The notes: generated by a model not told the origin, from the sequence alone. Positions 5,461-48,482 are shown, numbered from the stretch's first letter. The stretch: 64,000 nt of DNA from Raillietiella orientalis (GCA_036172245.1 JAYWIR010000023.1:2294001-2358000), one strand, 5' to 3'. A program made the numbers and translations.

Positions 5461-7635
5461 ACGGAGAGCAGAGCTCCGCGCTGCAGAGCGGTGGTTCACA
5501 TGTTTGCCAGCGCACGCATCCGCGCTTAGGAGGTCGGGGAGCAGGTTGGCAGCACTTCTCCACCTCGACCCGGAGAGAACTCCGAATGGACAGACGGTGA
5601 ATCATTGAATGCTACAGTCCGCTCCGGAAGAACAAAGTAGGGGAAACTAAGCAACGGGGTTCAACGCCTGCCCCTTGTATCTCCTGTGGCTCTACGCGAG
5701 CGGGGTTCGGTTGGCGCTGTTCCGCAAAGCGAAGTAGTCCTGGTTTTTGGGAAACGTGAAAGCGTTCATGGGATGGGTTTCCAGACAGAAGGGGAGAGAG
5801 ATCTCCGTTCCGATTTGCATCTGCATCCGATGCCCTGGATCCTGAGACAGACAAGAAAGGAAAAATTAACGCCCGGAAGTGGAGTTTTCAACCATGGACA
5901 TTACTCGAAGAGATTTTTAAGAAGAAACGGAAGAGAGCGCGGAAGTTCGCAGCGAGGGCGCTTTCATATCCAGCATCTGGACCCTGCGAGTGCATTTGGG
6001 CTCTGCTTAGGGAGAAGTTTCTTCCCATTCGAAACGAACGCTACGGGAGGGAGAGCAAAGCGTCGTCGTAAGGAACAGAAATGAAAACGAGGAGATCTGC
6101 GAGACTGTTCGAGATGAATGCTTTGAAAGGAGGATTCAGATCGGCTTTTCGGCAAGAAAGGCGGTGGGAGAACAGGAAGAGAACCCCGAGAGATAGAGAG
6201 AGAGAGGAAAGAAAAAACCAAGAAAAAATAAAAAAAAAAGGAGCCTGGTCGGGGATGGGCGCAACAAAAAAGAGAAGGAACGGGAAGGAAGCGCGCGATG
6301 CGGATTTTCGCGAGATGTTGCAATCCCCGAGCCTTCCTATCTGGCGGACGGAGACCATGAGGACGAGTCTCAGAACGTGCTGCGGCGTTTTGTGTTTCCA
6401 AACGTATACAGGGAGCCGTTCCGTTCTGCTCCCTGCCGTTCCCTTCTCCAGGACATTCGTCGCGCCTCCCTTTGCTGTAATCCTGGGTGAATCCATGATA
6501 ACTCGTGTGAAGGACCCGGCTGAATCAATGTTCCCTTGATTTAGGAGGGGGACAGACGCTATTCATGGAGTCGATATTTTAAGTAAAAATAGAAAAAGGG
6601 TTCTGGGAGTGACAACGTTTGCTCTTGATCCTTACTGGGGAGCTAGAGGCAGAGAGGACGTAGCAGAGGAAGCAGATAAAAAATCTGTGCTATGATGTTG
6701 AAGAATCCATCTTTCTATGATGCGCAACGAGATCGGAACTGTGACGTTTTTTTTTTATTCTTTTTTCACCGAGAGAGGGGTAAAGGATAGAGATTCTCAG
6801 CATCGGACCTTTTTCGACCACGCGGCACTTCATATTTGAACTCTGCGTAAGACGGACTTGTTTGCACCCCCAGCAAGCGCAGGGGGAGGAGAGAGGGTGC
6901 ATCTTTTCCACAAGCACTCGAGTGCCATTGCAATGCCAGTCGCCAGCTTTTGGGACGCTGTGCGAGGTGACGCAGCACATCGCTCCCTCGATGGAATCGT
7001 CTGATGTCGCGCGGGGCTCTTCCGTGTGATTTCGATGCCGTCGAACCTACTTGCTGACACGAATTATTGGTCCTTGAGGCGTGTTCGCAGCGAAGCTCCC
7101 AGCCGTGCGTCTTCCGGGAGGAGGCCTTCGATTCAAGAACTTGTGGAAATCTGCAAATGCGTCCTTCCCGCTGCCGCCAGAGCCACCGAGCCCAGGAAAC
7201 GGCGTCGTCCCACGAGGCACTGCTCCCTCCCTCCCTTCTCCTGAGAGTCCCTGAGAACGGCGAGGTCTTCCTCGCTCACCTCGAACGCGACAGAGAAACT
7301 CCGCCTGCTTTCTAAACCGCAGTGTCACGCATGCATCTCGCAGCGGACGGGATTCAAATCCAGGAAATGTCACGTCTCGAGGTCTGACCTGTGCAACACG
7401 CCCTCGAGAGAGCCCGCTAACACTTCCTTCCTTGGATCGATTCCTTGCTCCAGCTTTGGAGTTCCGAAGCTCTCTTCGCAACTGCTCGGAAACGAGTCCG
7501 TCCTTCAGCAACCCGAGGATGGGGAAAACTTTCTGCACTCTTCTTACTTTCCTATCCGCCAGCACCGCCTCACAAGCTGCTCAAAGTTACACGCCGGCCA
7601 GTGGGCGAAGTGACAACCTCTTTGTCTCAACAGAT

Positions 7636-9919
7636 CACATGCGGTACCCCCCGGGGCTGCAGGTTAACGCCCCTTGCAAGCGTCCACAGTAGGGGAACAT
7701 TTGAAAAGTGCGTCAGCTTGCTTCCGGCTCCTCTCCCATTCTTGCCGATCAATAATAATGCAGGCTCCCCGACTTCACGCCGTCCCGGATTCCTTCAGCA
7801 CGCTTTCCCCGTTCCTCGAGGCGGTAGCAGAGGCGTTCCCCTGCTCCTGTTGCTGCCGCGTAGGGGAGCGCTGTCCGGCGCTCCCTTCGATCCTCGGAGC
7901 GTGGTGCTTCGCGCGCAGCAAGCCGGTGCGCCGCGGCAGGTAGGGCGGCGGTGACTCGCCCCCACGTCCTTTCGATCCGCGATACCTGGAACGAAAGGCA
8001 GCGAAACGGATGTCCACGGTAAATCCCCACGTAGTGTGTTGCCTACGAATGTATCTACACGCACCTGTGCACGCATCTGTAGGTGTTCGTCTCTCGGGGA
8101 ACACGCCGGTGCCCGCGTTGGCACCCCACAGCTTCTGCAGTCTCCGCTCGCGGCACCGAGCGTTGCGGGTTCGAAGCCCACCCGGGGGGCGATCGACTCC
8201 GAGAAATGGGCGCGTCGTGGGTTTCGAGTTGCTCCTGCAGAATGACGCTGGTTCACCTACGGGCTTCGGGTGCGGCGCTGGTTGACACCCGGTCATGCCG
8301 GAGCGTTTCTTTTTAAACCTCCATGTGTGTGGCAGGACGTTTGATCCTGCCACGTTACTTATGGATACGAACAGGAACGTGCCGGGATCTGGCACGCAGG
8401 CCAGCAGGGTGCGCTTCGGCAGCACGAGGGAAGGGGAGACAAACAAAAAGAGAAAAACGAACCAAAAAAACTGCAGTCGAAAAGGACGAAGGGGGGGGGG
8501 ATGTTCGGGAAGGTATCACTGTGTGTTGGAGGGCGCCCGCTGCATCCTCGTAAGGATGCCGGCAAGTTCCTGTTTTATGGTTCCCAGATGGGGTCATCTT
8601 GACGCTGTCCTCATGTAGAGAACAGCAAAATGGATGGCATCCATCCAGCATCATTCTGGTCTTTGCTCGAAGTTCCACGCGCGACCACGATCCCGCGCAG
8701 GCAGCACAGTGCTGCTAGGGATGCGGCCGGCGAGAGGGCGTCGCTCAGGAAGAGGCACTTTAAAAGGTTCCTGGCGTTGCCGTCGGGGGTTCCAAGGGCC
8801 GTGTCCAAGCGTCCCCAAAGGAGCCGGAGGGCAAGTTCTACGAGGAGGTGCGGGAAGGACTCCTGCTCCCCGCACCGTGCACAGTTTGGGTTCACACACA
8901 GTTTCCGGCCTCCACAGATGCCGGCGGGCATTGCACGGGAGGCACGAATGCAGTATCATGAACGCCGACTCCTGCCATTTTAAAGAGAGGGTGCGGCGGC
9001 ACTGGTGGAGGCCGGAAACCCCCGGATGACCCCGTTGACCGGCCGGGACGAGAAGTCGACGGTCCGGGGTCCTTCCAAGAAATCAAGGAGATGTTCGCCT
9101 CCGGTTTTTGAGAATGAAGACGCCTCCCCCCTCGGGGGGTTGTTGCCTCTCCGGAACGTCAAGAAGCGCGCTGTTCCCTTCGGGGTTGGAAGCTCCCTTC
9201 AGGGAAATCGGGAAGCGTCCCTTCGGGGTTCTCTTCGGAGGGGGAAAGGAGGAGCGATTCTCTCGCGGGTTCCCTCCGAGGAAGAAACGGGGGGGGGAGA
9301 CCCCCGCAAAGCGGAGGGTTTCATCTGGAGAGAATCAGGAAGAGTAGGTAGACGTAGGAGGAGTGCTTTCTGTCCTCCGGAGCCTTCCTGGCTTCACAGG
9401 GTGCCCCCTCCCGGGGTACCCCCTATAGCTTGAAGAGTCACACGCATCCTCGGGTGGTAAAGAGCCTCTTCAGCCCTACGAGGGCGAACGGTTCTTGATA
9501 CTCATAGGACTTCAAAAAGGGAGAAGGCCCGAAAGAAAAGAAAAGTGAAAAAAAAAAAAAAAAAAAAGCAAAGCTGGAAGGAAAACAGCGAAAAGAGAAG
9601 AATTTTCGCCATCTTCGGGAACGCGCATGAGCATTTGCAGGGCGATGTTTTGCGAGGAGAGACGTGGGGCGTCACGGCAGGCTGCGGTGGACGCGCATCG
9701 CCCTGGCGTTTCCCGAGTCTCCCGTCTCGAAACCGGGAGCGCGTGCTGCGCTGAAGATTCCGTCCAGCATCCGAGGGATCCGTTCATGCGAAAAGGATAA
9801 TCCACCTATTTCATGATCTATTCTTTCGCCATGTTTGTCCTTCAGCTTAGTGGACCCTTGCTGGGCTGCAGACTGGGTACTCTCGATCGCGGCGACGGGC
9901 AACCCTCTTGTCGCAACGG
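7636..9919. repeat. Copy A of a ~2.29 kb near-identical duplicated unit (putative non-autonomous mobile element)
   Basis: Direct match to 46189-48482, with about ten substitutions plus homopolymer length changes by eye. The ORF track also repeats (7674..7943 = 46227..46496; 8611..8931 = 47166..47486). Confidence 0.97.
8590..9520 (-). mobile_element. 5'-truncated L1/Tx1-like LINE ORF2 3' fragment inside the duplicated unit
   Basis: Minus-strand NCARCGEQESFPHLLVEL (zinc-knuckle-like) and ASLAALCCLRGIV are homologous to the 3' end of the RT-bearing copy at 31695-33450. Same fragment at ~47150-48070. Confidence 0.8.
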
Positions 9920-11008
9920 GTCACAGGTTGTCCACTGCAGAGTTAAACAGAATTTATGTTGCTAGAGGAGTTGTTTCCTTCCACCCAGCCAGTTGTCTCT
10001 CCAATGCTTTCGAACATTTTCTTAAAATGCTTGGAAGATGTGTTTTTCTTTTTTTCCCTTGCAAAATAACATCCACTCTATGAGATTTACGCTCCAGGTT
10101 TCTGAACTTCTTTCTGCAGGGTAAAAACGGAAGATCTGTCGGACGGGTTAAGAGGGCAGGTCCTCTGTGTTATCCGGTAGGCCAAGAGCTACCTTTAATC
10201 GTGATGTATGTAGCCGCTGGGTATTACGATTTACGAGGGATCCACTAGCCGATACTTTCTCCTCACCGTTGCCACTCACCTACCTTCAGCTCGAGGTTTT
10301 CTTGTTGTATTTTTAAGGAATCTAAGAGCTGCAGATTGTTTCCTCGCATGCCCATCCAAGGGTGTTGCTCTCTCCTCTACGTGTACCCACTCCACGGCAC
10401 TCTAAGTAGAAAACCGCGCTGCGAATGATTTGCAATCTGCTTCTGGATTCTTCCGGAGTACGCATAGTCTCCGATGAAGTTCGAGGAGGCAAGGGCACTC
10501 AGTCTGAGACATCTCAAAGAGAAAATTTGCTAAACTTTTCCCGCGGAATTTCTGCTGCCCACTGAAGAGAGAATTTCCACAATTTTTTAGTCTGGACTCA
10601 TTTTCTAAGGGTATCGGAACCTCAGCGAGTGTATGTGTGTGTTTGTTTGCTTCTGTCAGAGGGAGGAATTCTGGAATCCTCCACCGCGATCTTCTATCCT
10701 CCCCAAACGCCATTTCCTAGTCGTCAAGCAACAACAAAAAGACATGAGAGCAGATAAAGGCTCAAGAATTTATAAATTAAAGGCAGAAGTAATTCTGATC
10801 ATGAGGGCGGTTGTGTTGCGCTAAACATCCCATTACAAAGCACAAGAAGAAATTTTCATCTTATTAGATTCTTTGTGTCTTTTGGATCAGTTGTTTATTG
10901 GCATGCTCTGGAGCCATTTCATCTCCTCCACCCCGTTCCATTCCACCGAAAAGACTACCCTTTCCGGGTGCCAAAGTTGTCCCCATTGTGTACTCATTGC
11001 TCACTTCT

Positions 11009-11035: not shown

Positions 11036-11288
11036 TCATTCCTTTGATAAGAACGGGATAAGCGAGTCGGCATCTGTGCAGTCAGGTGTTAATTTGCCCT
11101 TTAGAAACAAGCAGGTGTCTGCACATAGCTGGCCATCGAAGAACTTTCCAAACAACTTCTGGCATTGAGCACAGTTTTCGATGCAAACTTTCACGTTTTC
11201 CTGGTACCCTTCTGTGATCTCGACCATCAGAATCACGAGGATTACCAAGCAGTGTATGCTTTTCTCCAGGGTGATGTCGTTCTTCCTC
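11036..11288 (-). CDS. Eh: Eclosion hormone precursor, main coding exon (signal peptide plus mature six-Cys peptide)
   Basis: Reads (x)RKNDITLEKSIHCLVILVILMVEITEG-YQENVKVCIENCAQCQKLFGKFFDGQLCADTCLFLKGKLTPDCTDADSLIPFLSKE*. This matches the EH pattern CI.NCAQC..(M/L)(F/L)G..F.G.LCA..C...KGK..P.C.D..S..PFL. Hydrophobic signal core present. Splice acceptor ttttcattgcAG at 11300-11289. An in-frame TAA just upstream means a full signal peptide needs its ATG from an upstream exon (phase 2). Confidence 0.95.
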
Positions 11289-12399
11289 CTGCAATGAAAA
11301 GTGCATCCTTCATCTTACATGAAGCTTTTTTGAGTCTCAACAGAGAACTGTTTCCCGCATTCTCATCGCAACGCAGTCGCCATTCTAAAAACCATGAAAC
11401 TCTTGGCCCATGTTTGCTGCGACCACGCCTCGCTGGCCTCATGCTTGTGTTCTTCGGGGGAATAGGAACCTCGAAGACACCTGTTTTCCGGTCGAAAACC
11501 AGCGGGTTCAGCTCCTCACGGGTGGAACCGGAAATGCAACCGCAAGCGCGCGATTCTGGGCTAGGGCTCAGGTGCCTCCACGGACAAGCAAAACAAAGAA
11601 ATTCTATCTCCTTTTTCTCCTTCTCGAAAGCAGTCCGTGATTGAGTTAGGTTAGGAGAGCCAGGAAATGAAAAGATACTCGAAAAGTTTTTCCCACTAGG
11701 AAGATCGTCTGCCACTTGTAAAAGAATTTCTCGAAAATCCTCTTTCACGGGAACCTCTGCGGAGAGGCTTCAAGGACCGCAGTTGTGCCCGTTCGGTAAA
11801 ATTTTCAACAAACCACCACTCGTCCTTATCTTACGACCAACTGAGAGCTTTCCCTTGTGGCTAAGAGTATGAGGAAAGGCCACTTCCCCAGATGGCTCGA
11901 GTGCTTGGAAAAAGAAATACGTTGAAAGCGGCGCCGCTGCACTTTCTGACCCTGGAAACCATGTATGCTTTGACAAGGCAACCACGTAGCAACATTCATG
12001 CAGGAGCGTGAAACAATAACAGAGAACATTTACTCTACAGCGTTTCTGCCCTGCTCATCGCACGATTTCACATCTTCATCACATCACGTATCGCACATTT
12101 GCTCATTTTTGGCGGGAGCAAAGAAAGATTCACTCTGGACGTGTACATCGGATTAACTGAACAAAGAGCGGATCGGAAATATACAAACATTTTGCTTTAG
12201 GGTGCCCAAGGTGTCTCTCCTGTGTTCGAGCACTTCTTCAGTCTTTCTCCACACAAAGCTGCTCTGAAGGACAAGTTGAGGGAAATTCCAGCATATATAC
12301 TGATCGCGTCAGAAATTAAATTAGATACAGATTTTGGATGAGATAAGTGGCTTCCTAGGATACAAAAGTGTGCACTCAGAGTCCTGCTGAGGAGGACAC

Positions 12400-16009: not shown

Positions 16010-16580
16010 TCGCCAAACGCAACGTCCTTCCGCAGAAATCTTCTTACTCTCCCCAGGCGTGATAGAAATGGACTCCGAACCCTTCCTGGATTCTTTCTTT
16101 CTAAAGTGGCAGAAGGCGGCGCTTCTGCTGCTGCATTTGGGCCTCATGCAACGCGCGTCGATGTCACTGAACCCGGAGAGGTGTGGATCCGAACTGCAGC
16201 AGGTGAGGAGAACTTGAAGCCCTCCCGCACCTGCTTGTGGACTGTGTTGCCCTGCTACTGTTGCGGGGATGCTTCGCAGAGACGACCATTAGGATCCCAT
16301 GTGGCAACTCCAGTGACGCCCTGAGAACTCTCGTCTTGCACGACGCATTGCCGCCGGCCGCATCCCTAGCCGCTCTTTGCTGCCTACGTGGGATTGTGGC
16401 GGGGCGGAGCGACGACGCCAGTCGAGCAGGAAGCAGCAGGGATGCCACCCACTTCACCCTACATTTTTTACAGAAGGCAATGAGATATCCCCACCTAGAG
16501 AATAGGGGGGAAGAGCTTGTCAGCATCCTGGAAAGGATTCATAAAACGGGCTCCAACAGGAAGTGATCCCTTCCCACTTC
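16010..16580 (+). mobile_element. L1/Tx1-like LINE 3' fragment
   Basis: KWQKAALLLLHLGL and ALPPAASLAALCCLRGIV...AMRYPHLENRGEELVSILERI*, followed by GATCCCTTCCC; homologous to 32900-33450. Confidence 0.8.
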
Positions 16581-18049
16581 CCCTAGGATTTATTAGTATA
16601 TATATATATACATATTTTTTCATTTTTCCCATCCCGTCTAACTGCCGAGGCTATCTTCTCCTGTCTGCGCACCGGACGTCTGGCAAGCGGTGCAAATGTC
16701 GAAACATGATAGGGCCAGAGACCTCATCGATATTGTAATGTTTATTGCTTTCAATAAACGCCTTCGGTGATCCCGGGTGAAAATCTCAGGAACCTCCTTC
16801 GACTTCCAGATGCGGAGAGGCCAGCAGCTTGAAGAAGACAGGATGATTTCAGCAAGTTGCCAGCGGCCGCTTTTTGTTGCGACGGGTGGTGCAGCACGCC
16901 GCAGCGTGAGGGTATCATTCACGCGTTCCGCATGATAAGGAACAGGGGGACTCCCCCATCAGTGCCCTAGCCAGAAGGCCGTCGAAGCCCTGCCTCCGCG
17001 AAAGAGGGCACGAGCGAGGTTTTTCCTCCTTCTGATTCGCGTGATGGCTGCTGCTTGCATAAACAAAGGGGCCTCCGTCCCCATCTCATCAGAATCCTGT
17101 TCCCTCCCCCCTCGTTGCGGAACTGTCACAAAAGCAGTCTGCCTTCCTTGTCAGATGGTCCGAGGGAAACTTCCGCAATGAGGAAGCCGAACTGATTCCC
17201 AGCGTTTTTCGAAACTCTCTGGACGAGGTCTGTTTCCGTGGGTATGCCCCCGCCTGCTATCTGATCCAGATGAGAGGCTTTCGTTTCCCGCTACTGCTGC
17301 ACGTTCGCAGACTTTGGTGTGGACGCCTGAAGCGCGCATCCCATCTGGTTAGCTCATCTGATTTCAAGAAGATGGAGGAAGAGCTGACATCTTTTCCATC
17401 ATTTGGAGCTGTCTTTCAATTAACAAGGATTCTGGGAAGAATGTGAGTGACGTCTCACGGAAAGCATCGAAAGTAAACTAATTTTTGAACTGAAAAGAGA
17501 GCTTATTCACGATCTCATTCTTCTAAGAAAGGTCACCATCCGATGAGGATATCAACTTGTAGAAGAAATGAGGGCAAAAAAAAAAAAAAAAAAAAACATA
17601 CAAATGAGACTCGTGAACTGGGGGAGGGGGGAAGGGGGGGAGGGAGAGCAGAATTTTGATAAATGCATCCCGGCAGCTGTCACAGGGAAATGAAAGGAAT
17701 TCTTTCCAGAGTATCTATCGATCGTTGCAATTGTATTCCGAAAAACCATCTTACGAAAAACATACATCGATCTTTTCGGAAGATTACTATGGAACCGAGA
17801 GGGGTATTTTTTCCATTTTTTCGAGAAGGGTAGAGAAAGTAATGCACTGCAATCCATCACAACGACAAAAAAAGAAAAAAAAAATCGAACAAATTCCAAC
17901 GGCAATCGGACTTTGATCATTTCGGTTTGCTTCGTTCTTTGCAGCTTCTCGGCATTACGCGGGGAAAAATTCAATTATACAGCAAAAGCACGGATCACGT
18001 AGAAATGTGAGCTCGAATGAGATTTCCCAATGAGGGGTACGGAACTGAT

Positions 18050-22559: not shown

Positions 22560-23010
22560 CTTGCTGGTTTCCAAGCGGGCAGAAGATCCGAGATGAAAAT
22601 CGCAGACAGCTCAAAGAAGAGCGGCTTCCTCGCGCGTTCCCACCGGAGGAGAAATTCAGCAGCAGATCCTTTCCGGGTTCTTTTCGGATAAGAAATGAGG
22701 AGCGGTTCCCTCTGGGGAGTCGGTCCGGAGAGAATAAGGAAGAAATTTCCTCCGTGGTTCCCTCCAGAGGCGGCCAGGGCGAGTTCCCTTCGGGGTTCCC
22801 CTACCATGCATAAGAGGAACGGATTACTTCCTCCGGAGCACCTTCCAGGAACTCCTTCCAAGGCACTCCTTCCTGGATTCTTGGGGTGATCCCCTCCCAG
22901 GATATCCCATAACTTGGAGAGCCACACGCACCCTCGAATGGCATGGGCAGTGTTAAAGAGTTTTGTGAGCCTCCCCTAGGGAGGCGAACGGTTCTTCAGC
23001 ACTCCTTGAG
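22560..23010 (-). mobile_element. L1/Tx1-like LINE ORF2 internal fragment
   Basis: Nucleotide similarity to 9375-9500. The translation EPFASL...LWDIL...LLRWERARKPLFFEL aligns with DRFATL...TWTVL...LERWGEPFFIQL of the 31.7-33.4 kb copy. Confidence 0.6.
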
Positions 23011-23599
23011 AATCAAAAAAAAAAAAAAAAAAAATTCCGAACAAGTTCGTTTCAAACTTTTTCAGTTCAGTTACTTCGTTGCAGAAAGGCTCTCTCTCCA
23101 AAACAACTAGAAGCAAATGGCTGATCTAAAAGTAACACGTCTGTTTCCATGTGAGTATTGCTGAGTATTGGAAGATGTGTGTTTCCAAGGGAACAGTGTA
23201 AGGAGTTGTGCGTCCCGGTTCTCAGTAAGAAAAAAGCAGGTGGAGTAGCCTTGAGTCAGAATGGCTCTTGACTCGGACTGCTTTCAGGGTGCGGGGATCC
23301 GGCAGTAGTATCGAGAGCTTCTGGACAATTGGTTTTTTACCCGATCACACCGGAACGTTTATTTGAAAATAAATAAATTACAAGGCAGAGGGGACCCTGT
23401 CCCTTGAATACAAAAAATAAACAATGATAGCAACAGCAAAAGAAGTTCATTAAGAGTATCATCATCTCGCAGGTCAGCTTCTAAGGGATGCCTTGCTCAC
23501 GGGCAGTATCGTAGGCGAGGAAGGCGACTGAGCCGCGATTTTTGCTAGTTGAAAACTTCTAAGGGATTCAGGAGCGGGACGATAGGAAAATAAGTACAG

Positions 23600-25530
23600 T
23601 TAAAAAAAAAAAGGGACAGGGATCTTTGGTTCAGCTTTTTCTTCCTACTGCTAGCGCTGAATGTTGAGGATCTCCCTGACTACTTCTTGCAGGTGAGGTC
23701 ACCTCGAAGCAGTCCTCATCAAGGCGTCTGTGATTCAGAAGGCCTCTCTTCGCTGAGAACGAGATTCCATCACGAAGCGAACTGTGACTGTGGCGCGGAT
23801 GCAGCATCTCGTTGCCATCGTAGTGCCTTCCGTGAAAAATTGCCGCAGATGGTCCTCGAAGGTGTCCTTTGGGCGGTGGAACACCGAAGCACATCTCTGT
23901 CACATGTCTTCCAGGGTACCGCAGTCAACAGGAGGTGTGGGAATGATCCCATCGTCCCGCACCTCAAACAGTTCGGGGAGGCATCTCCCCCGTAAAGCAG
24001 GTACCTGCGCTGGTTGCACCGGAATCCCCAGTGCAAAAACAGCAGAACATCTTGTTTCCAGCGCGATGGCAACAAGGAGGTGTCCGCACACAGGGAAGGG
24101 ACCACGAGTTCTTCAAGGGGCACTCCGAGCAAGTGAATTCTCCAAAGGAGTCCCTTCGTCCGGGAACGAGGAGTGGCGCCATCCACCAGCCGTCAGAGGG
24201 TTTCTCGGCTCATGCAATGCTGCAGAAGAACTCTCACTCTGCCCGTTGACTACTGTCATTTTCCCCCGAGGGCAGACAGCTCTGCGGCAACAGTTGTGAC
24301 GGCGACTGTGCGGGACCACTGCGTCCAGTCCTGCAGGAGATCTCCCAGCGGCTCGCATGGAAGTTTCCGCGGCGGGCGAAGTTCCTCTGGGAGCGCTTCC
24401 AAAGTGCTAACCCCGTGTCTCCTTCCGCCAGAAGTTTTAGTTTTGGGGGAAGGCAGGAGATCCACAGGTGAGCTATCACAAGTGAGGATAGCTACCTCAG
24501 GTGGTAGTCAAATCCGCTCCTCTTATGACGGCTGCGCGGCAGCAATGAGAGAAGTCATTCGCTACAGGCACATCTCTTGAGGATAAGGTGTGCTGAAATG
24601 CACCAAACAGAGGTCCATTATTAGGCGAAGAGTATCAAAAGACGAAACTTCACTTGTAACCCGACTTTGTGATTGATCAGGATGTCCAAGCCGGAATCCA
24701 GGCGCAGCACCACCAAGTCTTTTAGGCGGATCCGGGACATTGCAGCGCTCTATAGGGCTTTCCTGAGGAGATGCCGCGCCCGAAATATCACCGAATAAGG
24801 GAGTCGACAAACAAAAAATTAGGGAATGAGGAAGGGTCATCAAAGGTGCTCCAGATGGTGTCCCGTTCCAGCAAGAAGAAATTGTCATCAAGGAACGAGC
24901 CGAGAGCCATCTCTGGTCTTCTGAAGGCAGGCCGACCGCGCTTCTGCAGCGCGAAAGTCGTCCAACGGTACGCCAAGGTACCTGCAGTACCTGCCCGTGG
25001 GTATCCCCAAGCGGATCCAGTCTGTCTGCCCCTCTCAAGACGCACTAAAGTCTTAGTTCTATGATCTTCAGCATCTACTTCGAATTGGTGCTGAAGGCTT
25101 GTAGCCTGACGCTGGCTAACCTTCCAAACTCCTGACCATGCACTTCGTCCTGTCGACTCTTATTCCCGCTTCCCTAAAGATCATCTCGAAGACATCCTCG
25201 AGCCCAGCTACAGGGATGGGCATGGGCAACAGAAGAAGCAGGTTGCCTTTGTAGACCGCCACGGACGACGTGCATGGTCGGGAGTTTGGAAGGTTAGCCA
25301 GCGTCAGGCTGTAAGCCTTCAACACTAATTCGAAGTAGATGCTGAAGATCATAGGGCTAAGACTGTTGCCCTGCGTTGCTATGGGCGTAACAGCTCTGAA
25401 AAAGAAATTCAATATCGCACTGAAGCAAGTAAGCCCCGGAAGAATCAGCGTGACCTGGACTTCCGTAAACATTGAGTCTCGAATCACTAGTCCTCGGGGA
25501 CAGAACACTGAAAGAAAGCTCGGACTGACA
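23600..25530 (-). mobile_element. Decayed L1/Tx1-like LINE, RT to 3' end
   Basis: TQGNSLSPMIFSIYFELVL (RT motif B'), degenerate YADD region (VYKGNLLLLLP), NFFLLERDTIWSTF, and NCLRCGTMGSFPHLL; 3' GATCCCTGTCCC plus a T tail. Confidence 0.85.
25049..25364. repeat. Inverted repeat with 102-bp arms (25049-25150 / 25263-25364) and a 112-bp spacer
   Basis: Arm 1 equals the reverse complement of arm 2 with 8 mismatches by manual alignment. Confidence 0.92.
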
Positions 25531-28100: not shown

Positions 28101-30569
28101 TTTCCCCGGATGACGCCCACGAAGACATCTTTTCGGGACGCTTGCGCGCGCTGGACGGTGTGGCGCTCCGCACGTTGGCAGAGCGTCGCGGATCCACCGG
28201 TCTGCCCCGTCTTCGTTGCGTAAGCTAGAAACAGACAGCTGTGCTTTCTGAACAGAGCCTGCGGTCCCGTAGCAGGGCTGGCTCCAGGACGGCCTCGCGC
28301 TTGACAGGAGTTCAATCTGTGGCTCTAGCAAGATTCTACGGTGCCCGGTTCTCCTTCTACGAGGGGGCAGACTCATCCTCCCCCCTCCATCGAAGACAAG
28401 AAATGCGGGCACTTACGAAAGGTGTTCCGTCATAAAACCTGTCGAAGAAGGTGTCTAGGTGACCCTCCCTCCAGGAAGCTGCTCAGCGGCGTCGAATCCC
28501 AGAGGCCAGGATTCGACCTGATCTGTCGATTCTCGCGCGTTCCGGAGCTGGAGGATGCTCGGTGAGTTCGTGCTGCCTCCTCTTCGTGAGACTGAGAACA
28601 CCCCATTCCGGATTTATCGCTCCTCCCGGCGACGAAGCGAAAATGGAGCATCAAAATAGAGAAGATGAACGAATGGGGGAGGACGAGGAGGAGGGAAGGG
28701 TCACCGGACTCGAGTCTTTCCTGGCCTCCAGTCGATGCGTCATGTAAGCAATGTCGAGACCAGCTTTCCCGTGGCTCGAGGGTGAAGGTGTTGCTGGAGA
28801 CGTGGTTTCCTTCTTGACGAAGGGCCGCCTCTTCCTTCCGCGGATATGACAGAAGAGAGTGAACTGCTACTGTGGCAGGAGGAATTCCTTCTGTGGAGAA
28901 GGAAGACCCATGCAAGAGGCCCTTAGGGGCGTAGTCCGGATAGGAAGGGAATCTCGCCGCTCCTAACCCGAACGAAGGGGCCCTGAGGTCCAGGAGGAGG
29001 TGAGGAAGGACTGCCCCGATCCACACAGGCTCGCGGGAGCGTCCCGCCTCTTCGTGTTACAGCTGCGCCTGTTGCATGGAGAGCTCGGTGCGGGAGCAGA
29101 GACATCGTCCAGGAGCTGAACGAGGGGAGGGACGGGGAGGCGGACATCCCGACCCTCATTTTCTATCCCTCACCACGTCCCTCCAACGAACTAGGGCAGG
29201 GGATGCCACCGGCGCGGCGCATGTTCCCCACCCATCCGGAGCACGCTTCCCAGGGTAGCGGATGCAGGGAGCCGAGTGGAAGGAAGACGCTCACGCGGAC
29301 TGCTCCCGAAAGCTGCGGGAGGAAGTGAAGGCGAAAGTCGCTGCCTACGCGACCCGTCTCCGCTCAGTAGATTTTGGGTATTTCCACTTCAACCGCTGGC
29401 CACGCCTCACATCCCTGCAGGTCGCCTTTCCCGGGTCCCCGGCGGTCGTCGGGGAACTTGCTCTGTGGCACCAGGGAAGATGAGGACGCTGGAAGATTTC
29501 ACGAGAGGATTCGCCTCAAGACGAGGACGGGGAACAAAGCAAAGCAAAAAAAATAAAAATAAAACTGCTGCTGCTCCATAATTCATGAACAATTTCCCGG
29601 AGGAAGATCTCCAGGGACAGGCGGCCCCATTTGGCGAACTGCTCAGAAACAGTTCCTCTCTCTAGGAGTCCCAGGCCTGACACCGGGTTCGTCTCAGGCG
29701 GCAGGTCACCTTGAACCACGGAAGGCTGCTGCTTTCGTTCGGCGGTCTCCAGGCAGGGAGCGAGAGCGGCTCTCTCCCTGCCTACCGGATCCTTGCTGGG
29801 AGCTCAACTTGCAGGGCGAGGGGAGCGTTAGCCTGCCGCCACTGCCACGCTCGCGGGCGGCGCGTGCTCCTACCCTGGGAACCTCGGGAAGTGCGGGGGC
29901 AGCTGCACCCCTTTCCGACAGAGGCCACCCTCACAAGCAGGCAGGGGCGCTTAAGGGATGGAAAGGGAGTCGCTGTTTCTTGCAGGTTCCGCTCGCGGGA
30001 GAGCAGCCCCTCCATTTGTATGCGTGCGCCGTGCTCCTCCACGATGCAGAGGGAGAGCTTTCGCTCATTCTCGGGGCGGAGGGAGGATACCGTAAACGCA
30101 AAAAGCTGGGAGATTTCCTCTCCGAGGTGATCGAGGGAGAGAGGAGGGGGCGATCAATCTCTGGACAGGAAAACTGGGATGTGGTTCTTCCTATAAGCGG
30201 GAAACCTCATAGGACTGGCTGCTAATTCGGCAGCGTCCCGGGAAGGAAGCGGAAGAGGGCAGCAGCGGGACGAAGACAGAAATGGGTGGAAGCAGAAAGT
30301 CACTCCGCCCCTGGAGGGCGTTGCCACTCGGTTGGACCACGGCGTTTCCTGGTAACCAATAACCACTCAAAGGAGGCATTGGTAGGACTTTCGGCAGCAA
30401 GCGACGAACCTGCCGAGATGCCGGAACGCGGACCGGCGAGGATCTCCTTGACAGCAGAGAGAGAGGGGTGCAAGCAGGAGGAAGGGCGAACCAAAAAGTC
30501 AATGGAAATAAACGGATAGACTTTGGAAGGTTCGGGAAGGAATCACGATCTGCTGGGAGGCGCTCTCGG

Positions 30570-31240
30570 CCATCCTTCCAAGGATGCCGGCAAGTTCCGG
30601 GGGCACACTACCTAAATGGTCCACCTCGTCGCTGTCCTCAGGAAGCGAATGGAAAAGTGGATGGCGTCCCTCTCGCCCTCGCCTCTTTCGTCAGCGCCCC
30701 AGGCAGTCACCATCCCACGGTAATTGCTTGGGCTGCGGGATGCTAGGGATGCGACTGGCAGTAGGGCATCTTCCGTGAAGAGGCACTCAAAAACGTCTCT
30801 GGAGTTGACCACCGGCATCCGAAGGGCCGTTGCTAAACGCTTCCATGGGGAGCAGAGGGCAACACAATGCACGAGCAGGTGCAGGAGGAATTCGCCTTTT
30901 TCCTCCTTCCAGGGTTCATTGATTCCGGGGTGCGTTGCGTGGAAGATCCCAGGGCAGCAACAGAAGCACCGACTTCCGCCACTTCAAAGGGAGGTGGAAG
31001 TCACCCCTACTTTTGCATAATCATAGGAGACCCGAAACCGTGCGAGTCAGCGGTCGTCGCTTGAAGGGGTGCTCTAGCTGCCGATGCGTCCAACAGATGC
31101 TCCTGCTGTGCGTTACGTGGTGGACGATGCAGCCATCAGCTCTGGTTCGCGTAGGAGCTCTGGAGAAGAATCGCTCGGCAGCAGATCTTCTAGAAAAGTT
31201 TTTCGCCCGGTCATGCCGGGGAGTTCCGAAGACGGAAGAA
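30570..31240 (-). mobile_element. L1/Tx1-like LINE 3' fragment
   Basis: HLLVHCVALCSPWKRLATAL...SRDVFECLFTEDALLPVASLA is homologous to the family 3' end. Confidence 0.75.
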
Positions 31241-31439
31241 GTCTAAGGAGAGAGTCTAACTACATACAGGTGGGAATAACAAAGAGTCCGTAACGGGGGA
31301 GAGGATCAGAGGACAACAAAAAAAAAAAGTCGAAGTGGGATGGGACAGGGGGTCTTTGAGTTTGCTCCATGTGCACCGGGAACAAAACAAAAAACATCGG
31401 GGAAGTTACAGAGCAAACGGGAATGGGAAACGAAGAAAA

Positions 31440-31690
31440 ACATGAAAATAAAATAAATGGAGGCAGGGGATAAGGGTCACCGGTGTCCGCCGTTCTTAGC
31501 TCTCCTCAACTGTCTCTGGATGCCGGCGATCTCTTCCTTCGCCTCTTCTAGGTAAGGCCACCTTGCAGCTATCCTGATGTAGGCGGCTGCCATCCTGGTG
31601 ACCTCCCTCTGCTGCGTGGTGGTCTCGATCACATGGCGGACCGCGACGATGGCGCGGATGCAACCGATGGTTGCGATCGCCACGCCTGAG
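31440..31690 (-). mobile_element. L1/Tx1-like LINE extreme 3' end (diverged subfamily)
   Basis: VAIATIGCIRAIVA...YIRIAARWPYLEEAKEEIAGIQRQL* is homologous to AAIAALCCVRGVVA...FLQIALRWPHLEREKELASILQRM; a T-rich tail follows on the minus strand. Confidence 0.75.
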
Positions 31691-31694
31691 CTTC

Positions 31695-33450
31695 TGGAAC
31701 GCTTTGGATTCCTGGCCGTCTTCCTGGCCTGTCTGCGCCCTAGCTGGCTCTCCGCGCTGATTAATGTTTTCTTCAACGGCCGGCACGTGTACTGCATTCC
31801 GGTGCGGCGCGGCGTGAGACAGGGAGACAGCCTGAGCCGCTTACTCTTCAGCACCTACTTCGAGTTGGTGCTGAGAGCGTACAGGGATACTCTGGCTTCC
31901 CTGCCGAGCTCGTGCTCGAGCTATGCCGTCCGTGTCAGCCTATGCAGATGACCTCTTGCTGCTGCTCCCCATGTCTTCCCCTACAAACGCACTCGAGGAA
32001 TTCTTCGAGCTGTCAAGTAGGGGAACGGGCATGAAGGTAAACAGAGCAAAGGTGCCGATGGGGGATATTTCCCCTACGGAAGCGTGGTCCGACTGCCTAC
32101 AGAAGGCAGAGTCGGTGCTCGGCCCGTTCCAAGGAGGCAACTTCCTGTTACCGGAGCAGGCCTTCATTTGGAGCACTTTTGTGGCCCCCGTCCTCCGACC
32201 TCTGCTTTTCGTGTGTCACGCTCCCCCCGGTGTGGTAAAACGGACAGAGGACCTCCTTCAAAAAACTCTCTGGGGCAATGGGAGGTCCCGAGTCCGATTA
32301 AAAGGCTTGTGTGCTCCTTGTCGCGACGGAGGCCTTGGACTCCTGACGTTGGAGCGCATGGAAGTTCAGTTGAACTTTCGAAGACTGGCCTTCGTGATCT
32401 GGGCCGCCCATTGGTGCGCCTCTGCACGTTTGCTCTCTCGGCTGGCAGTCGGTGGCGACAGATTCGCAACTCTGTTTGCATGTCACCGCCGCCGGCTCCC
32501 ATCCTGCGTCTTCCCTTTCCGGTGTGTCGCTGCTCTGGTGAGAGCGAACAGGTGGATTCGCTGCCGCTCTGCGAACATTCCGGCCTGGCAGCAGTAGGAA
32601 GTGAGGACGTGGACCGTGCTCACTCGGGCTCCGTAGGAAGTTACCCGCTGCCGAGAGTTTCAGAAGAATAGCGGAAGAACACTGGAGGCGGTGGGTAGTG
32701 ATCTGACCACTTGGGCTACCCAGCAGCCACCCCCTTCGCCGCAGCGGTGTCCTCCGCTATCAAGATACATGGCACCTGCCTACCGGCGAATTGGGAGGTT
32801 TCCTGCGAGATCTCGGTCCGCAGGAAGCCTATCAGTGGCTTGACACCGCGTGAGCTGGCTGATGCGGCAACAAGAACCACCTCCAAAGGACTGGAACGTT
32901 GGGGAGAACCCTTCTTCATTCAGCTCGAAGACTTGGACGTGCCCCCCGTGTTTATGACAGAAAACTGCTTCCCTTCGAGTGGCAGCAATCGACGCTGCTG
33001 ATACTGCACTGGGGTCTCCCGTGCAATGAGCGCCGGCACTACTGGACGAGGGGAAGCGCATCGCCGAACCGTGACAGATGTGGAGAGAAGGAGACTTTCC
33101 CTCACCTCATAGTGCAGTGTGTCGCCCTCCGGGAACTGTGGGAACGTTTCTCTGCGTCCCTTCCACACCCCGTGGACGATCCCAGAGACTCTTTGAGACT
33201 CCTCTTCGTGCGGGACGCCATAACGCCTGCAGCCGCAATCGCAGCGCTGTGCTGCGTGCGCGGTGTCGTCGCGGCGAAGTGCGACGCCGAGGGAGTCAGA
33301 GCGCCGGGGGGACTGTCCTGCATGCCATCCGCTTCCTGCAGATAGCTTTGAGGTGGCCTCATCTGGAAAGGGAGAAGGAGCTCGCCAGCATCCTTCAACG
33401 AATGCAAAGGCCTCACCCACCACGAAATGTGATCCCTTCCCTTCTACCCA
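31695..33450 (+). mobile_element. Best-preserved L1/Tx1-like non-LTR retrotransposon ORF2 (RT to C-terminal zinc knuckle), pseudogenised
   Basis: RRGVRQGDSLSRLLF, SAYADDL, GMKVNRAK, TLW...RDGGLGL, DRCGEKETFPHLIVQC. Frameshift near 31920, stop at 32595-32597 and later frameshifts. 3' GATCCCTTCCC and a T-rich tail to ~33530. Confidence 0.9.
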
Positions 33451-33669
33451 ACTAATTTTTGTTTTTGTTATTGTTTCTTTTTTTTTGGGTTGCTTGTTAT
33501 AGTTTGTTTTCATTTTATATTTTTGTTTCATCCCCCCTTCCCCCTTAGAGGACGTAATGGATCTCTCCGGCTGCTCCCTTCTTTCTAGTGTAACAATGGG
33601 AATTGGTGGGCCATCGGTTCCATCGATTCCTGTAACAGAATAAACGTCCCGGCGTACCTGGGTGTGAAA

Positions 33670-35050
33670 TCACCACGCCCGTGGAAAGTTCTTCCGGTGC
33701 GAAGAACCGCCGCAGCACATCTCGGGCGGTATTCTCCTGGTGCAGGGTGCTGACGCCAGCCTCCGCCACAGTTCCTGGAGGACAAGGCAATTTAAAAGCA
33801 GGTTCGACGGGATGGACCCCTCGACCCTCATCTGGCCCAGTTGGAGGACACAACCACAACGGAAGCGAGGGTGCCGTCGCTCATTGCACTGGAATCTCCA
33901 GTGCAGGAAGAGCAGCACGACCTGTTTCCAGAATAGGATGAACACTGAAGTGTCCAAACAATGGAGAAGGACCACAAGTTCTTCAGGGGTTCTAGATACG
34001 TCGGTCCAGATGACTGAGCTCTATCAAGTCCTCAGAAGGAAAGTCCTTAAAGTTCAACTCACTTGAGCAGCTCCTCTGCCCAACGCTTGGGGTCGCTGCC
34101 TCAACCAGCTAGCTGACCCGGCCGATGATGATATACCAAGGGGTCCCGTTGCTTCTGCGAAGGTTCGGGACAACTCTCTCACAACCACCCCATGAGACTC
34201 CCCCAGGGCAGCTCATGGGGGATCTGAGATCATCTCAGCGTGCTTCAGAAGCAGGTCAGGTGCCAACTTGATCCGACAGGGTGCTCAGAAATCATCATAA
34301 TCTTCTCATCTAGGGCATGCCGCGGGCTATCCACTGAAATGGATAAACAAGCTTAGGACTGGTTGGCTTTCTGTGGGAGCGAAATGAGACGGTTCGAGTC
34401 CTGCCGGGACAACACAAATAGGGAAGAAGTGGAGGGTGAGGAGGGAGAGTCGATGAATAAATAAATAGAGGGTGTGGAGAGAGGACTGGTCTCGCGGTGA
34501 CGATCATGAGGGTCTGTTCTGGGAGGGGGCGGGGAGATGGAGGGGAGAATGGAACGCAGTCATCGGTTCAGCCCGTCAGTCAGTCCCCAATTGCCCTGAG
34601 GAGTCCTTTCGCATCACTTTCCAGCTCACACCGTTCGCCGCATAAGGGCGACGGGAAGCGCGGATGGCTCCTTTGGATAGCGGACCCGTTCCTCTTCCAT
34701 ATCGGATGCTGCCGCTGCTCTCCAGAGAGTCAAAAGACTTCCAGTGAGGCAGCAACTGGTGGAGCGAGCATTGATGTGGGAAGGACCATCGTCGGAAAGT
34801 CCGAGCGCTCCTGAGATGAGCATTCGACCATGCTGCAGTTTCTGGAACATTCCAAAAGCAAGTTTGGAAGGGCACCTGCGAATTCCCAATGCGCTCGTTC
34901 CTTGGGAATCCTCCTCCCCGTGGGTGCGTGGAGGCGCTCTGCTTCCGGGGAAGATCCCCAGTGAATCAGCAAGATGGCGGCGTGTCGCTGAAGCGGAGGG
35001 TAGCATGGACGCGTCGGTCAGATCAACCTGGGACGTCAAGATTTTCTCAA
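33670..35050 (-). mobile_element. L1/Tx1-like LINE remnant, tail-to-tail with the preceding copy
   Basis: 33670-33975 encodes FWKQVVLLFLHWRFQCNERRH...NLLLNCLVLQELWRRLA, a clear family 3' block. The upstream part is weaker and its extent is uncertain. Confidence 0.6.
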
Positions 35051-41366: not shown

Positions 41367-41582
41367 ATGTGCCGCCGCCGCCCGGCGTGCCTGCGCCTTG
41401 CGCTGTGCGCCCTCGCGTGGCTTGCCGCCGCGCCGCCGCCCCCCGCGCGCGCCATCCCGGATGCCCAGAGGCTGTACGCCGACCTGCTGAGTAACTACAA
41501 CCGGGTCATCCGGCCTGTGTATAACAACTCGGAGCGCCTGATCGTCAAGATGAATCTGAAGCTCTCCCAGCTCATCGACGTG
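41367..41582 (+). CDS. nAChRalpha: Nicotinic acetylcholine receptor subunit (alpha1/alpha8-like), coding exon 1
   Basis: Signal peptide, then [43 protein letters not shown] (cf. [22 protein letters not shown]...LSQLIDV). 72 codons, phase-0 donor GTAAGC at 41583. Confidence 0.95.
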
Positions 41583-44720: not shown

Positions 44721-46188
44721 AGCTGCGGGAGATTTCATTGCGGCGTGCTGGAGTGCACGCCGCAATGCAAGGAGGAAAGGGAAGGGAAAAGAAAAGGAAG
44801 GAAAACCGGAATGAAGAACAGGAAGTAGAGCTCATCCTTCACGCGCAGAGGGATGCGGGGGTGGTGATGCTGTGGCTGCTTGCGAAGCTCCAGTCTCCTT
44901 CCGGGACCTTTCCGGAGTCTCTTCCTTTCCTAAGGAGGAAGCGCGTCCTCGATTTTTCTCGGGGATCGCCCTCCCAACGCTGCTTGCCTTCTGGACCGGT
45001 TGGCCTTCCGGGTTTCCCATGAGGGGATTTCCTGGAAACGCGACCGCCAGAGCGCGGTCCGGCACGGTAGCGTCGGAAGGAGCTTTGCTTCGAAGTTTTC
45101 GACTCCCGTAGAGACGAAGTTTCGTCTGAATTCCCGCGCGCGTGATGGATTTGCTGCAGTATCCCGCGGCCGTATCGGCTTGCGCTGCAGTCGGAAGCTG
45201 GAGAGGCGGCCTCACAGCTCCTCAGCTGGGGGACCCCCTCATTAGCATCGATCCCTCCTGGTTCATGAGGAGCGCGTTGGCGCCTCCAATAGGGTGCTAC
45301 CTTCTCCGACTCCTGCTGCCTTCACCAAGGCGGCTTCGGCCCGCCCTTGGCGAGTGGTGGAGCCGAAGAAGACGGAACGATTTAGTACAGTAGCGACTGT
45401 GAGGGTTCCAGCAAGCCCCCCGCGTGCGGCTAGGGCAGGAGTGCGCTGGCGTGCAGGTCAGACGAGGGGAGGAAGCCGCCGGAGCGGTCATCCGCTGTCG
45501 GGCGCGCGCAGCCGACAAATCTTCATAGAGACTGCCGCGAAGAGACGTCCCGCTCCCTGCTCTGCAGCTCCCACTGAGCAGCTATGCACAGCACTTAATG
45601 GAACTAGATGGGAGAGAGGAGAAGCGAAGGAAGCGACGCCTGCGGGGGGTAACAGTGGATGAGATTGCAGTCGTTATCAGGAGTGCCAGATGCCAGTGCC
45701 CGGTGGCGCTCTTGTAGAACTGGTTTCTGACACAAAGAAGACAGGTGTGAGATTTCACCATGGCCACTGTGCGTTGATGCATTATAATCCCATTAACAAG
45801 TTCTGCTACACCGCTGCCATGGTAACACTTGCTGATTACGGATGCTCGATGCGACTGCAAGCAGGCGTTCGGAGGCTTGGGGATGACGCTGTGCTGGGAG
45901 CCGCAAACTGCATTGAGCTCAAGTCGAAGGGAACCCGTGCGGAAGACACGCCTTCAGCTTCTTTTCAAACCCATCGGCTTGGGAACTGGTTTCCAGAGCT
46001 TCTTCGACTTCCGCCGGGAATCCTGCAAGTGTTTCCGTGTTCCTTCGAAAGCTCGCATTTGTCACATTTTCGAGGCAGAAATTCACCGACTCGGAATCTC
46101 CAATAATTTGTTTTCCGACAGCTGATTCCGGTTTGTTTAGCAATTTTGAATGAGTAGAGGGAGGGGCAACCTCTTGGTCTCAACGGGC

Positions 46189-48482
46189 CACATGCAGTAC
46201 CCCCCGGGGCTGCAGGTTAACGCCCTTTGCAAGCGTCCACAGTAGGGGAACATTTGAAAAGTGCGTCAGCTTGCTTCCGGCTCCTCTCCCATTCTTGCCG
46301 ATCAATAATAATGCAGGCTCCCCGACTTCACGCCGTCCCGGATTCCTTCAGCACGCTTTCCCCGTTCCTCGAGGCGGTAGCAGAGGCGTTCCCCTGCTCC
46401 TGTTGCTGCCGCGTAGGGGAGCGCTGTCCGGCGCTCCCTTCGATCCTCGGAGCGTGGTGCTTCGCGCGCAGCAAGCCGGTGCGCCGCGGCAGGTAGGGCG
46501 GCGGTGACTCGCCCCCACGTCCTTTCGATCCGCGATACCTGGAACGAAAGGCAGCGAAACGGATGTCCACGGTAAATCCCCACGTAGTGTGTTGCCTACG
46601 AATGTATCTACACGCACCTGTGCACGCATCTGTAGGTGTTCGTCTCTCGGGGAACACGCCGGTGCCCGCGTTGGCACCCCACAGCTTCTGCGGTCTCCGC
46701 TCGCGGCACCGAGCGTTGCGGGTTCGAAGCCCACCCGGGGAGGGATCGACTCCGAGAAATGGGCGCGTCGTGGGTTTCGAGTTGCTCCTGCAGAATGACG
46801 CTGGTTCACCTACGGGCTTCGGGTGCGGCGCTGGTTGACACCCGGTCATGCCGGAGCGTTTCTTTTTAAACCTCCATGTGTGTGGCAGGACGTTTGATCC
46901 TGCCACGTTACTTATGGATACGAACAGGAACGTGCCGGGATCTGGCACGCAGGCCAGCAGGGTGCGCTTCGGCAGCACGAGGGAAGGGGAGACAAACAAA
47001 AAGAGAAAAACGAACCAAAAAAACTGCAGTCGAAAAGGACGAAGGGGGGGGGGGGAGGTTCGGGAAGGTATCACTGTGTGTTGGAGGGCGCCCGCTGCAT
47101 CCTCGTAAGGATGCCGGCAAGTTCCTGTTTTATGGTTCCCAGATGGGGTCATCTTGACGCTGTCCTCATGTAGAGAACAGCAAAATGGATGGCATCCATC
47201 CAGCATCATTCTGGTCTTTGCTCGAAGTTCCACGCGCGACCACGATCCCGCGCAGGCAGCACAGTGCTGCTAGGGATGCGGCCGGCGAGAGGGCGTCGCT
47301 CAGGAAGAGGCACTTTAAAAGGTTCCTGGCGTTGCCGTCGGGGGTTCCAAGGGCCGTGTCCAAGCGTCCCCAAAGGAGCCGGAGGGCAAGTTCTACGAGG
47401 AGGTGCGGGAAGGACTCCTGCTCCCCGCACCGTGCACAGTTTGGGTTCACACACAGTTTCCGGCCTCCACAGATGCCGGCGGGCATTGCACGGGAGGCAC
47501 GAATGCAGTATCATGAACGCCGACTCCTGCCATTTTAAAGAGAGGGTGCGGCGGCACTGGTGGAGGCCGGAAACCCCCGGATGACCCCGTTGACCGGCCG
47601 GGACGAGAAGTCGACGGTCCGGGGTCCTTCCAAGAAATCAAGGAGATGTTCGCCTCCGGTTTTTGAGAATGGAGACGCCTCCCCCCTCGGGGGGTTGTTG
47701 CCTCTCCGGAACGTCAAGAAGCGCGCTGTTCCCTTCGGGGTTGGAAGCTCCCTTCAGGGAAATCGGGAAGCGTCCCTTCGGGGTTCTCTTCGGAGGGGGA
47801 AAGGAGGAGCGATTCTCTCGCGGGTTCCCTCCGAAGAAGAAACGGGGGGGGGGGGAGACCCCCGCAAAGCGGAGGGTTTCATCTGGAGAGAATCAGGAAG
47901 AGTAGGTAGACGTAGGAGGAGTGCTTTCTGTCCTCCGGAGCCTTCCTGGCTTCACAGGGTGCCCCCTCCCGGGGTACCCCCTATAGCTTGAAGAGTCACA
48001 CGCATCCTCGGGTGGTAAAGAGCCTCTTCAGCCCTACGAGGGCGAACGGTTCTTGATACTCATAGGACTTCAAAAAGGGAGAAGGCCCGACAGAAAAGAA
48101 AAGTGAAAAAAAAAAAAAAGAAAGAAAAAAGCAAAGCTGGAAGGAAAACAGCGAAAAGAGAAGAATTTTCGCCATCTTCGGGAACGCGCATGAGCATTTG
48201 CAGGGCGATGTTTTGCGAGGAGAGACGTGGGGCGTCACGGCAGGCTGCGGTGGACGCGCATCGCCCTGGCGTTTCCCGAGTCTCCCGTCTCGAAACCGGG
48301 AGCGCGTGCTGCGCTGAAGATTCCGTCCAGCATCCGAGGGATCCGTTCATGCGAAAAGGATAATCCACCTATTTCATGATCTATTCTTTCGCCATGTTTG
48401 TCCTTCAGCTTAGTGGACCCTTGCTGGGCTGCAGACTGGGTACTCTCGATCGCGGCGACGGGCAACCCTCTTGTCGCAACGG
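46189..48482. repeat. Copy B of the ~2.29 kb duplicated unit, in nAChR intron 1
   Basis: Near-identical to 7636-9919 in the same orientation; 10 bp longer through G-run and A-tract expansion. Confidence 0.97.

Follow-up and report, generated by a model that had tools for sequence, protein, structure and literature searches.

Within 64,000 nucleotides of the Raillietiella orientalis genome (assembly GCA_036172245.1, JAYWIR010000023.1:2294001-2358000; hereafter the window, which, unless another is named, is the scope of the searches for repeats, motifs and open reading frames (ORFs) reported here), a unit of about 2.3 kb is present in two nearly identical copies, termed A and B. The duplication is real and precisely bounded, and an unusual motif lies at all four of its junctions. 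With a probability of about 0.5, the pair is a dispersed, same-strand, intrachromosomal segmental duplication produced by homology-guided break repair, of the type of synthesis-dependent strand annealing (SDSA) or duplication-dependent strand annealing (DDSA), with the short motif at the breakpoints. Coordinates of the unit and of the features discussed below are collected in Table 1.

The two copies lie on the same strand at an offset of 38,553-38,563 bp. Local alignment gives 2293 identical columns out of 2316 (99.0%), which agrees with the initial annotation of this DNA, where two copies of about 99% identity had been described about 38.55 kb apart. The differences comprise 13 substitutions (9 transitions and 4 transversions) and three indels with 10 gap columns, every one of them in runs of G or A. 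The unit is seen twice only in the window. Its homology ends abruptly at both outer boundaries; none was found between the copies left of the left motifs, and the 800-bp flanks on either side of both copies are unique in the window. Comparison of the base composition of the flanks with that of the unit revealed no readable direction of copying.

The substitutions are concentrated at the left edge. Six of the 13 fall in the first 60 bp (binomial P 4.6e-7), amounting to a divergence of about 10% as compared with 0.31% elsewhere (7 in 2246 bp). They are located at 7623 in the left arm of the motif, at 7632, 7634 and 7635 in its four-nucleotide NNNN spacer, and at 7643 and 7673 just inside the unit. 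The remaining seven are scattered through the rest of the unit, and the last 386 bp contain none. The copies had been said to differ only outside the CAAC-NNNN-CACA core; this is incorrect, since three differences lie in the spacer of the left motif and one in its left arm. One-sided invasion, heteroduplex or a conversion tract would be expected to leave such a pile-up of substitutions at one edge; clean cut-and-paste would not.

A related motif of about 30 nt occurs at the start and at the end of both copies. The left form reads G(G/A)CAACCTCTT(G/T)GTCTCAAC-NNNN-CACA and lies within the homology between the copies. The right form reads GGCAACCCTCTTGTCGCAAC-GGGT-CACA, the version in copy B being cut after CAACGG. 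The four junction strings quoted in the initial annotation are present as written, and left and right motifs resemble each other beyond chance: their local alignments score 14-21, and the null from 20,000 equally spaced pairs of window segments, among which the real pairs may have been drawn, is 5.9 ± 1.4 (empirical fraction ≤7.5e-4). Searched with a profile of the motif, the window yields the four junctions only (E 7e-25 to 4e-8, the next best match having E = 3), and no empty motif site occurs in it. The element-proximal halves of the motifs are identical between the copies, and the outer right halves differ. The spacers at the left and right ends are AGAT and GGGT in copy A, and GGGC and GGTC in copy B. 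It is also true, as had been pointed out earlier, that GGG(T/C) is found at the right end of copy A and at the left end of copy B.

Extension of the motif past CACA into the right flank of copy A, or upstream of GCAACC, is not significant (fractions 0.05-0.6) and therefore cannot mark copy A as the donor. Hairpins at the four junctions are no stabler than those of shuffled sequences (z 0.01 to 1.16). When public collections were scanned with a pattern covering both forms of the motif, 3 stretches were matched in metagenome contigs, 0 in viral contigs and 3 in bacterial genome contigs. The six loci have nothing in common with the unit beyond the motif (two of the six give matches of 26-37 nt), and these matches are at chance level. 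A permissive Rfam scan of 7400-10200 returned three sub-threshold matches (E 0.28-3.4), none of which lies at the motifs; hence the motif is not a recognizable target of the RNA-gene kind. A reading of the motif as a splice site or introner was rejected: among the motifs only the left one of copy A contains CAG, and homology between the copies continues across it.

The content of the unit is that of ordinary DNA. Two old repeats nested in it, R1 and R2, account for 1120 of the 2306 bp (49%). R1 has seven other diverged copies in the window by nhmmer, with blastn identities of 67-72%, and three of the copies end at the same unit coordinate, 8985-8992. The family is about 750 bp long and has at least 9 copies or fragments in the 64 kb. 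A minus-strand frame of the R1 copy in the unit carries a Cys/His pattern that we take to recall the C-terminal zinc knuckle of a non-LTR (long terminal repeat) retrotransposon; Pfam does not support it, and a search for R1 as the 3′ part of such a retrotransposon gave no Pfam match even at E ≤ 10. A protein-atlas match is a weak lead (rank 10, score 0.91, in a cluster of which 44% of the members carry zf-RVT). R2 has a relative at 22651-23033 that is likewise A-tailed (nhmmer E 6e-20), and alignment of 9150-9600 with 22600-23060 gives a mean column identity of 74%. This second family is about 360 bp long and resembles a short interspersed element or retroposon; a weaker match to it lies at 17063-17596. 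The rest of the unit has no relatives in the window, older or fragmentary, and no ORF of at least 80 aa in the unit has a Pfam match. The unit thus has the look of passively copied, ordinary non-coding DNA in which nested repeats have decayed, and not that of a coherent element.

Table 1. Coordinates of the duplicated unit, its junction motifs, nested repeats and neighboring features, counted from the first nucleotide of the window.
Feature	Position	Strand	Remarks
Copy A of the unit	7614..9919	+	2306 bp; local alignment with copy B; also recovered by find_repeats (families D1-D4)
Copy B of the unit	46167..48482	+	2316 bp; blastn 99.0% over 2316 columns
Left-edge zone of raised divergence	7614..7673	+	6 of 13 substitutions in first 60 bp
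Left motif, copy A (GACAACC...CAAC-AGAT-CACA)	7612..7639	+	profile match, E 8e-24
Right motif, copy A (GGGCAACCC...CAAC-GGGT-CACA)	9897..9925	+	homology with copy B stops at 9919
Left motif, copy B (GGGGCAACC...CAAC-GGGC-CACA)	46163..46192	+	profile match
Right motif, copy B	48460..48482	+	same as copy A through CAACGG, then unrelated TCCCGC...; profile E 4e-8
R1, old interspersed repeat nested in the unit	8237..8992	.	copy B equivalent ~46790-47547
R1 copies elsewhere	16095-16718, 30320-30996, 32972-33682, 43805-44361, 23586-24041, 31412-31674, 33752-33918		nhmmer
R2, old A-tailed retroposon-like repeat nested in the unit	9204..9567	+	copy B equivalent ~47759-48130
Eclosion hormone exon	11039..11314	-	Pfam PF04736, E 8.6e-24; 1.1 kb right of copy A
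Nicotinic acetylcholine receptor subunit, first ligand-binding-domain exon	41466..41582	+	Pfam PF02931, E 1.6e-6; 4.6 kb left of copy B
U4 small nuclear RNA (snRNA) match	23489-23563		above Rfam gathering threshold, 51.4 bits vs gathering score of 46

The hallmarks of transposons were looked for at the ends and in the interior of the unit. No word of 4 nt or more is common to the two junctions of either copy, which bears out the earlier remark that the left and right motifs are too unlike to be a fresh target-site duplication (TSD). Matched to the reverse-complemented final 50 nt, the first 50 nt score 6-7 (null 6.6 ± 1.5), and the statement that the unit has no terminal inverted repeats (TIRs) is thereby upheld. 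TG...CA ends with a TSD of 4-6 bp, as in an LTR or solo LTR, were not found at the unit ends, and no retroviral domain was detected in the interval separating the copies, where exons of host genes are present. Neither end bears the A-rich or microsatellite tail of a non-LTR element; the A runs of the unit are internal only (9544-9567, the tail of the nested R2). Helitrons have 5′-TC and 3′-CTRR ends and are inserted between A and T. The unit starts with CAACC, ends with CAACGG and is flanked by A/G and G/T. A 5-bp stem (GCGAC...GTCGC) lies 5 nt before the right end and is no stabler than shuffled sequence (z 0.7-0.9). Neither split direct repeats nor internal complementary regions of the DIRS/Ngaro type were found inside the unit. 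A survey of the window for stop-to-stop ORFs of at least 80 aa yielded 389, and two of these have a Pfam match at E ≤ 0.001, both being host exons, of eclosion hormone and of the nicotinic receptor. No recombinase, transposase or reverse transcriptase was detected by Pfam among the 389, in keeping with the earlier observation that no recombinase is visible in the unit or the window. In the window, every test for membership in a class of mobile elements gave a negative result.

A duplication made by repair could have proceeded as follows. One locus would have borne a body of 2.26 kb between two old, diverged direct copies of the ~30-nt motif. The other locus, at a distance of 38.5 kb, would have suffered a break within or next to a sequence resembling the motif, and the resulting 3′ end would have paired with the donor's left motif. 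The body would then be copied by repair synthesis, and the new strand would be released and captured on reaching the next motif copy at ...CAACGG. Through these steps, hybrid-looking motifs would arise at both junctions, as in site-specific recombination, and no recombinase would be needed. The cluster of substitutions at the edge may represent the acceptor's own copy of the motif kept in heteroduplex, or errors of early repair synthesis, which is described as mutagenic (PMC12891019). Alternatively, it may be the unconverted edge of an older duplication, the interior of which was homogenized by gene conversion. Whereas the duplication, the motif at the four junctions, the mosaic content and the lack of transposon hallmarks are observed, the repair pathway, the direction of copying (from A to B or the reverse) and the origin of the edge cluster are what we infer. 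The initial annotation had also suggested the re-integration of an extrachromosomal circular DNA guided by the motif. Guidance by the motif comes near the repair reading; a homology-guided event gives the same hybrid-looking junctions and requires no recombinase.

Known duplications provide a basis for the repair reading. DDSA, that is, SDSA following a break in a repeated sequence with the use of an ectopic copy of the repeat, was proposed for the segmental duplications of Drosophila (Fiston-Lavier et al. 2007, as described in PMC3276153 and PMC3420103). According to the same two accounts, intrachromosomal duplications in Drosophila have a mean size of 3.1 kb, and for half of them the spacing is below 14 kb; the present pair, with same-strand copies of 2.3 kb spaced by 38.5 kb, fits the size and arrangement of these duplications. 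The unit is likewise a kilobase-scale, non-tandem copy with a repeat at its breakpoints, and it has neither TSD nor TIR nor an enzyme of its own. In the window, a repeated sequence is present at every breakpoint and the duplicated content is genomic DNA without transposon termini or coding domain, both as SDSA and DDSA would have it. The unit departs from the Drosophila examples in that its breakpoint repeat is only about 30 nt long, imperfect and not a recognized transposon, and in that its spacing exceeds what is typical; no filler DNA or clear signature of microhomology could be read from its two occupied sites. For vertebrates, too, repaired breaks are reported to capture chromosomal DNA from nearby, in events that are mostly shorter and closer by than the present one (most of them <5 kb, with a longest acceptor sequence of 3.4 kb, in the survey of Pace et al. 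2009, PMC2671141).

Several points weigh against an origin by repair. Three motif-like sequences, two in the donor and one in the acceptor, are needed within 41 kb, and none exists elsewhere in the window. As the motif is found only at the junctions, it is not a common dispersed repeat in the window. Its placement would then be coincidental, and a dedicated recombination site would explain the placement more neatly. The right flank of copy B (TCCCGC...) shows no likeness beyond chance to the right part of the motif, though annealing predicts some. The spacing of 38.5 kb is large for repair-mediated capture as described in the vertebrate survey (PMC2671141). Finally, GGG(T/C) on opposite sides of the two copies fits a carried-over coupling sequence like that of Tn916.

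The last point leads to an alternative that we regard as unlikely, in which a site-specific recombinase supplied in trans would insert the unit, as a non-autonomous element with a circular mobile form, and the ~30-nt motif would be its recombination site. The enzyme could be a tyrosine recombinase (Crypton- or Tn916-like) or a serine recombinase (IS607-like). Each insertion would be flanked by hybrid attL and attR sites in direct orientation, and the circle junction is expected to read ...GTCGCAAC-GGGY-CACATGC.... It speaks for such an element that all four junctions lie in one motif that is absent elsewhere in the window, that the element-proximal halves agree between the copies while the outer right halves do not, that the unit is devoid of TSD and TIR, and that GGG(T/C) changes sides as a carried-over coupling sequence should. 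Cryptons are moreover present in insects, where non-autonomous derivatives of them exist (PMC3212892).

The structure of the presumed site argues otherwise. Core sites of tyrosine recombinases typically consist of two inverted repeats or arms around a short overlap (PMC3212892). At the proposed CAAC-NNNN-CACA crossover, the arms are complementary at no more than 0-2 of 11 positions, both in the attL and attR of each copy and in the attP and attB rebuilt from them; wherever in these sites a dyad is sought, the best reaches 7-8 of 11, and a fraction of 0.22-0.66 of random 60-mers from the window do as well or better. The left arms of the two left motifs, which should be independent targets, are identical to each other at 18 of 20 positions and each identical to the "attP" arm at 15 of 20. 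They have four of their five differences from the "attP" arm in common, with the same base (P~6e-5 if independent). The two left arms therefore have a common descent, whether they belong to the duplicated unit or to a single older repeat, and yet nothing homologous is found further left. Each copy has different spacers at its two ends, old nested repeats make up half of the unit, and the 64 kb holds two copies only, with no empty motif site and no recombinase ORF. In addition, for a Crypton of insects and the non-autonomous element derived from it, 50 copies are described as being without terminal repeats (PMC3212892). A target-specific element moved by a tyrosine recombinase, as the initial annotation had it, is thus unsupported, in view of the missing dyad, the non-independent left arms, the mosaic of old repeats and the lack of a recombinase.

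Comparison with described elements leads in the same direction. Fungal and oomycete Cryptons have identical terminal direct repeats of 4-6 bp, and animal Cryptons none, according to Kojima and Jurka (2011, PMC3212892); a statement to the same effect on Crypton termini in general is found in PMC13465315. The unit resembles Cryptons in having no TIRs and no classical TSD, in junctions with the look of a recombination event joining a site of the element to a similar target, and in that non-autonomous derivatives are known in insects (PMC3212892). It differs from them in that its repeat is about 30 nt long and imperfect, with 4-nt "spacers" that are not the same, and in that the window offers no tyrosine recombinase gene, no core site with a dyad and two copies only. 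The likeness to conjugative transposons of the Tn916 type is limited to the short, non-identical junction sequences, one of which was possibly carried from a previous site. Such transposons are bacterial, encode their own integrase and excisionase, and have ends with inverted repeats next to non-identical coupling sequences; integrase, excisionase and inverted-repeat ends are all missing from the unit. An undescribed family of arthropod elements, with the unit as a non-autonomous member, moving as circles and inserted by a site-specific recombinase at an asymmetric site of about 30 nt (CAAC-N10-CAAC-N4-CACA) without a dyad, in direct orientation at both ends and with a carried-over 4-nt coupling sequence like that of Tn916, has in our estimate a slightly smaller chance still of being the answer. 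The long att-like ends of such a eukaryotic element would set it apart from every Crypton described. If many copies with the same ends do exist, they would constitute a new recombinase-type element of animals with unusually long, asymmetric att-like ends.

An age greater than the 99% identity implies is about as improbable as movement by a recombinase. The duplication would then be old, with a divergence of about 10% as at the left edge, and would have undergone gene conversion later from ~7680 to the right end, so that the 99% overstates its recency. The step from 6 differences in the first 60 bp to 0.31% over 2246 bp, with none in the last 386 bp, is sharp and one-sided and resembles the end of a conversion tract. 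Nevertheless, 60 bp is a very small sample and three of the six differences are clustered within 4 nt. The homology stops dead at both boundaries, and conversion would alter only the date of the duplication and not the origin of its motif-bounded ends.

Still less credit is due to a transposon of another class with degraded or atypical hallmarks, for instance a Helitron-like rolling-circle element or a tail-less retroposon mobilized in trans, the copies of which happened to land close by. Most repeats of 2 kb in arthropod genomes are transposons, and the unit, like a Helitron, has no TIR or TSD and has a short stem near its 3′ end. However, its termini are not 5′-TC and CTRR-3′, it does not lie between A and T, and the stem is not significant. 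Neither end carries an A tail or microsatellite, and the unique parts of the unit have left no older or fragmentary copies in the window. An assembly artefact, with one copy being a misplaced or doubly used segment, is the least probable of the explanations: all three indels are in homopolymer or A-rich runs, a typical class of long-read error, but the 13 substitutions show a normal transition bias (9:4), both copies are flanked by unique sequence on both sides, and artefactual duplicates are usually tandem or at contig ends.

If the pair was made by repair, it illustrates in an ordinary way the origin of small segmental duplications in arthropods; the imperfect short repeats at its four breakpoints, together with a one-sided cluster of mismatches, could help to read the direction and mechanism of the event, given an empty site for comparison. 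The two copies form direct repeats that bracket 36 kb containing the eclosion hormone gene, the U4 snRNA-like sequence and a 5′ exon of the nicotinic receptor. They are a possible substrate for unequal recombination, which would delete or duplicate the genes of this interval.

The window is eukaryotic, and its genes point to an arthropod. A protein search with the eclosion hormone exon gave no match, and the nicotinic receptor exon is also matched by receptor chains in the PDB (E 1e-4). The U4 match extends over only 75 nt of sequence, although positions 1-138 of the model are covered, and represents a pseudogene or else a U4 gene that is short or partial. An R1 fragment starts at 23586, directly after it. 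ARAGORN predicted no tRNA genes in the window, and U4, which lies outside the unit, is the sole Rfam match above the gathering threshold. The segment 28000-56000 is a long G+C-rich tract (57-67% G+C, as compared with 42-50% in its flanks) with many spurious long ORFs that have no Pfam match, and polypurine tracts of the (AGGG)n type lie inside it at 41605-41714 and 54175-54226. A near-palindrome of 316 bp at 25049-25364, with arms of 102 nt that are 92% complementary and 112 nt apart, is possibly a foldback element resembling miniature inverted-repeat transposable elements, and a diverged relative of it is found at 31820-32012.

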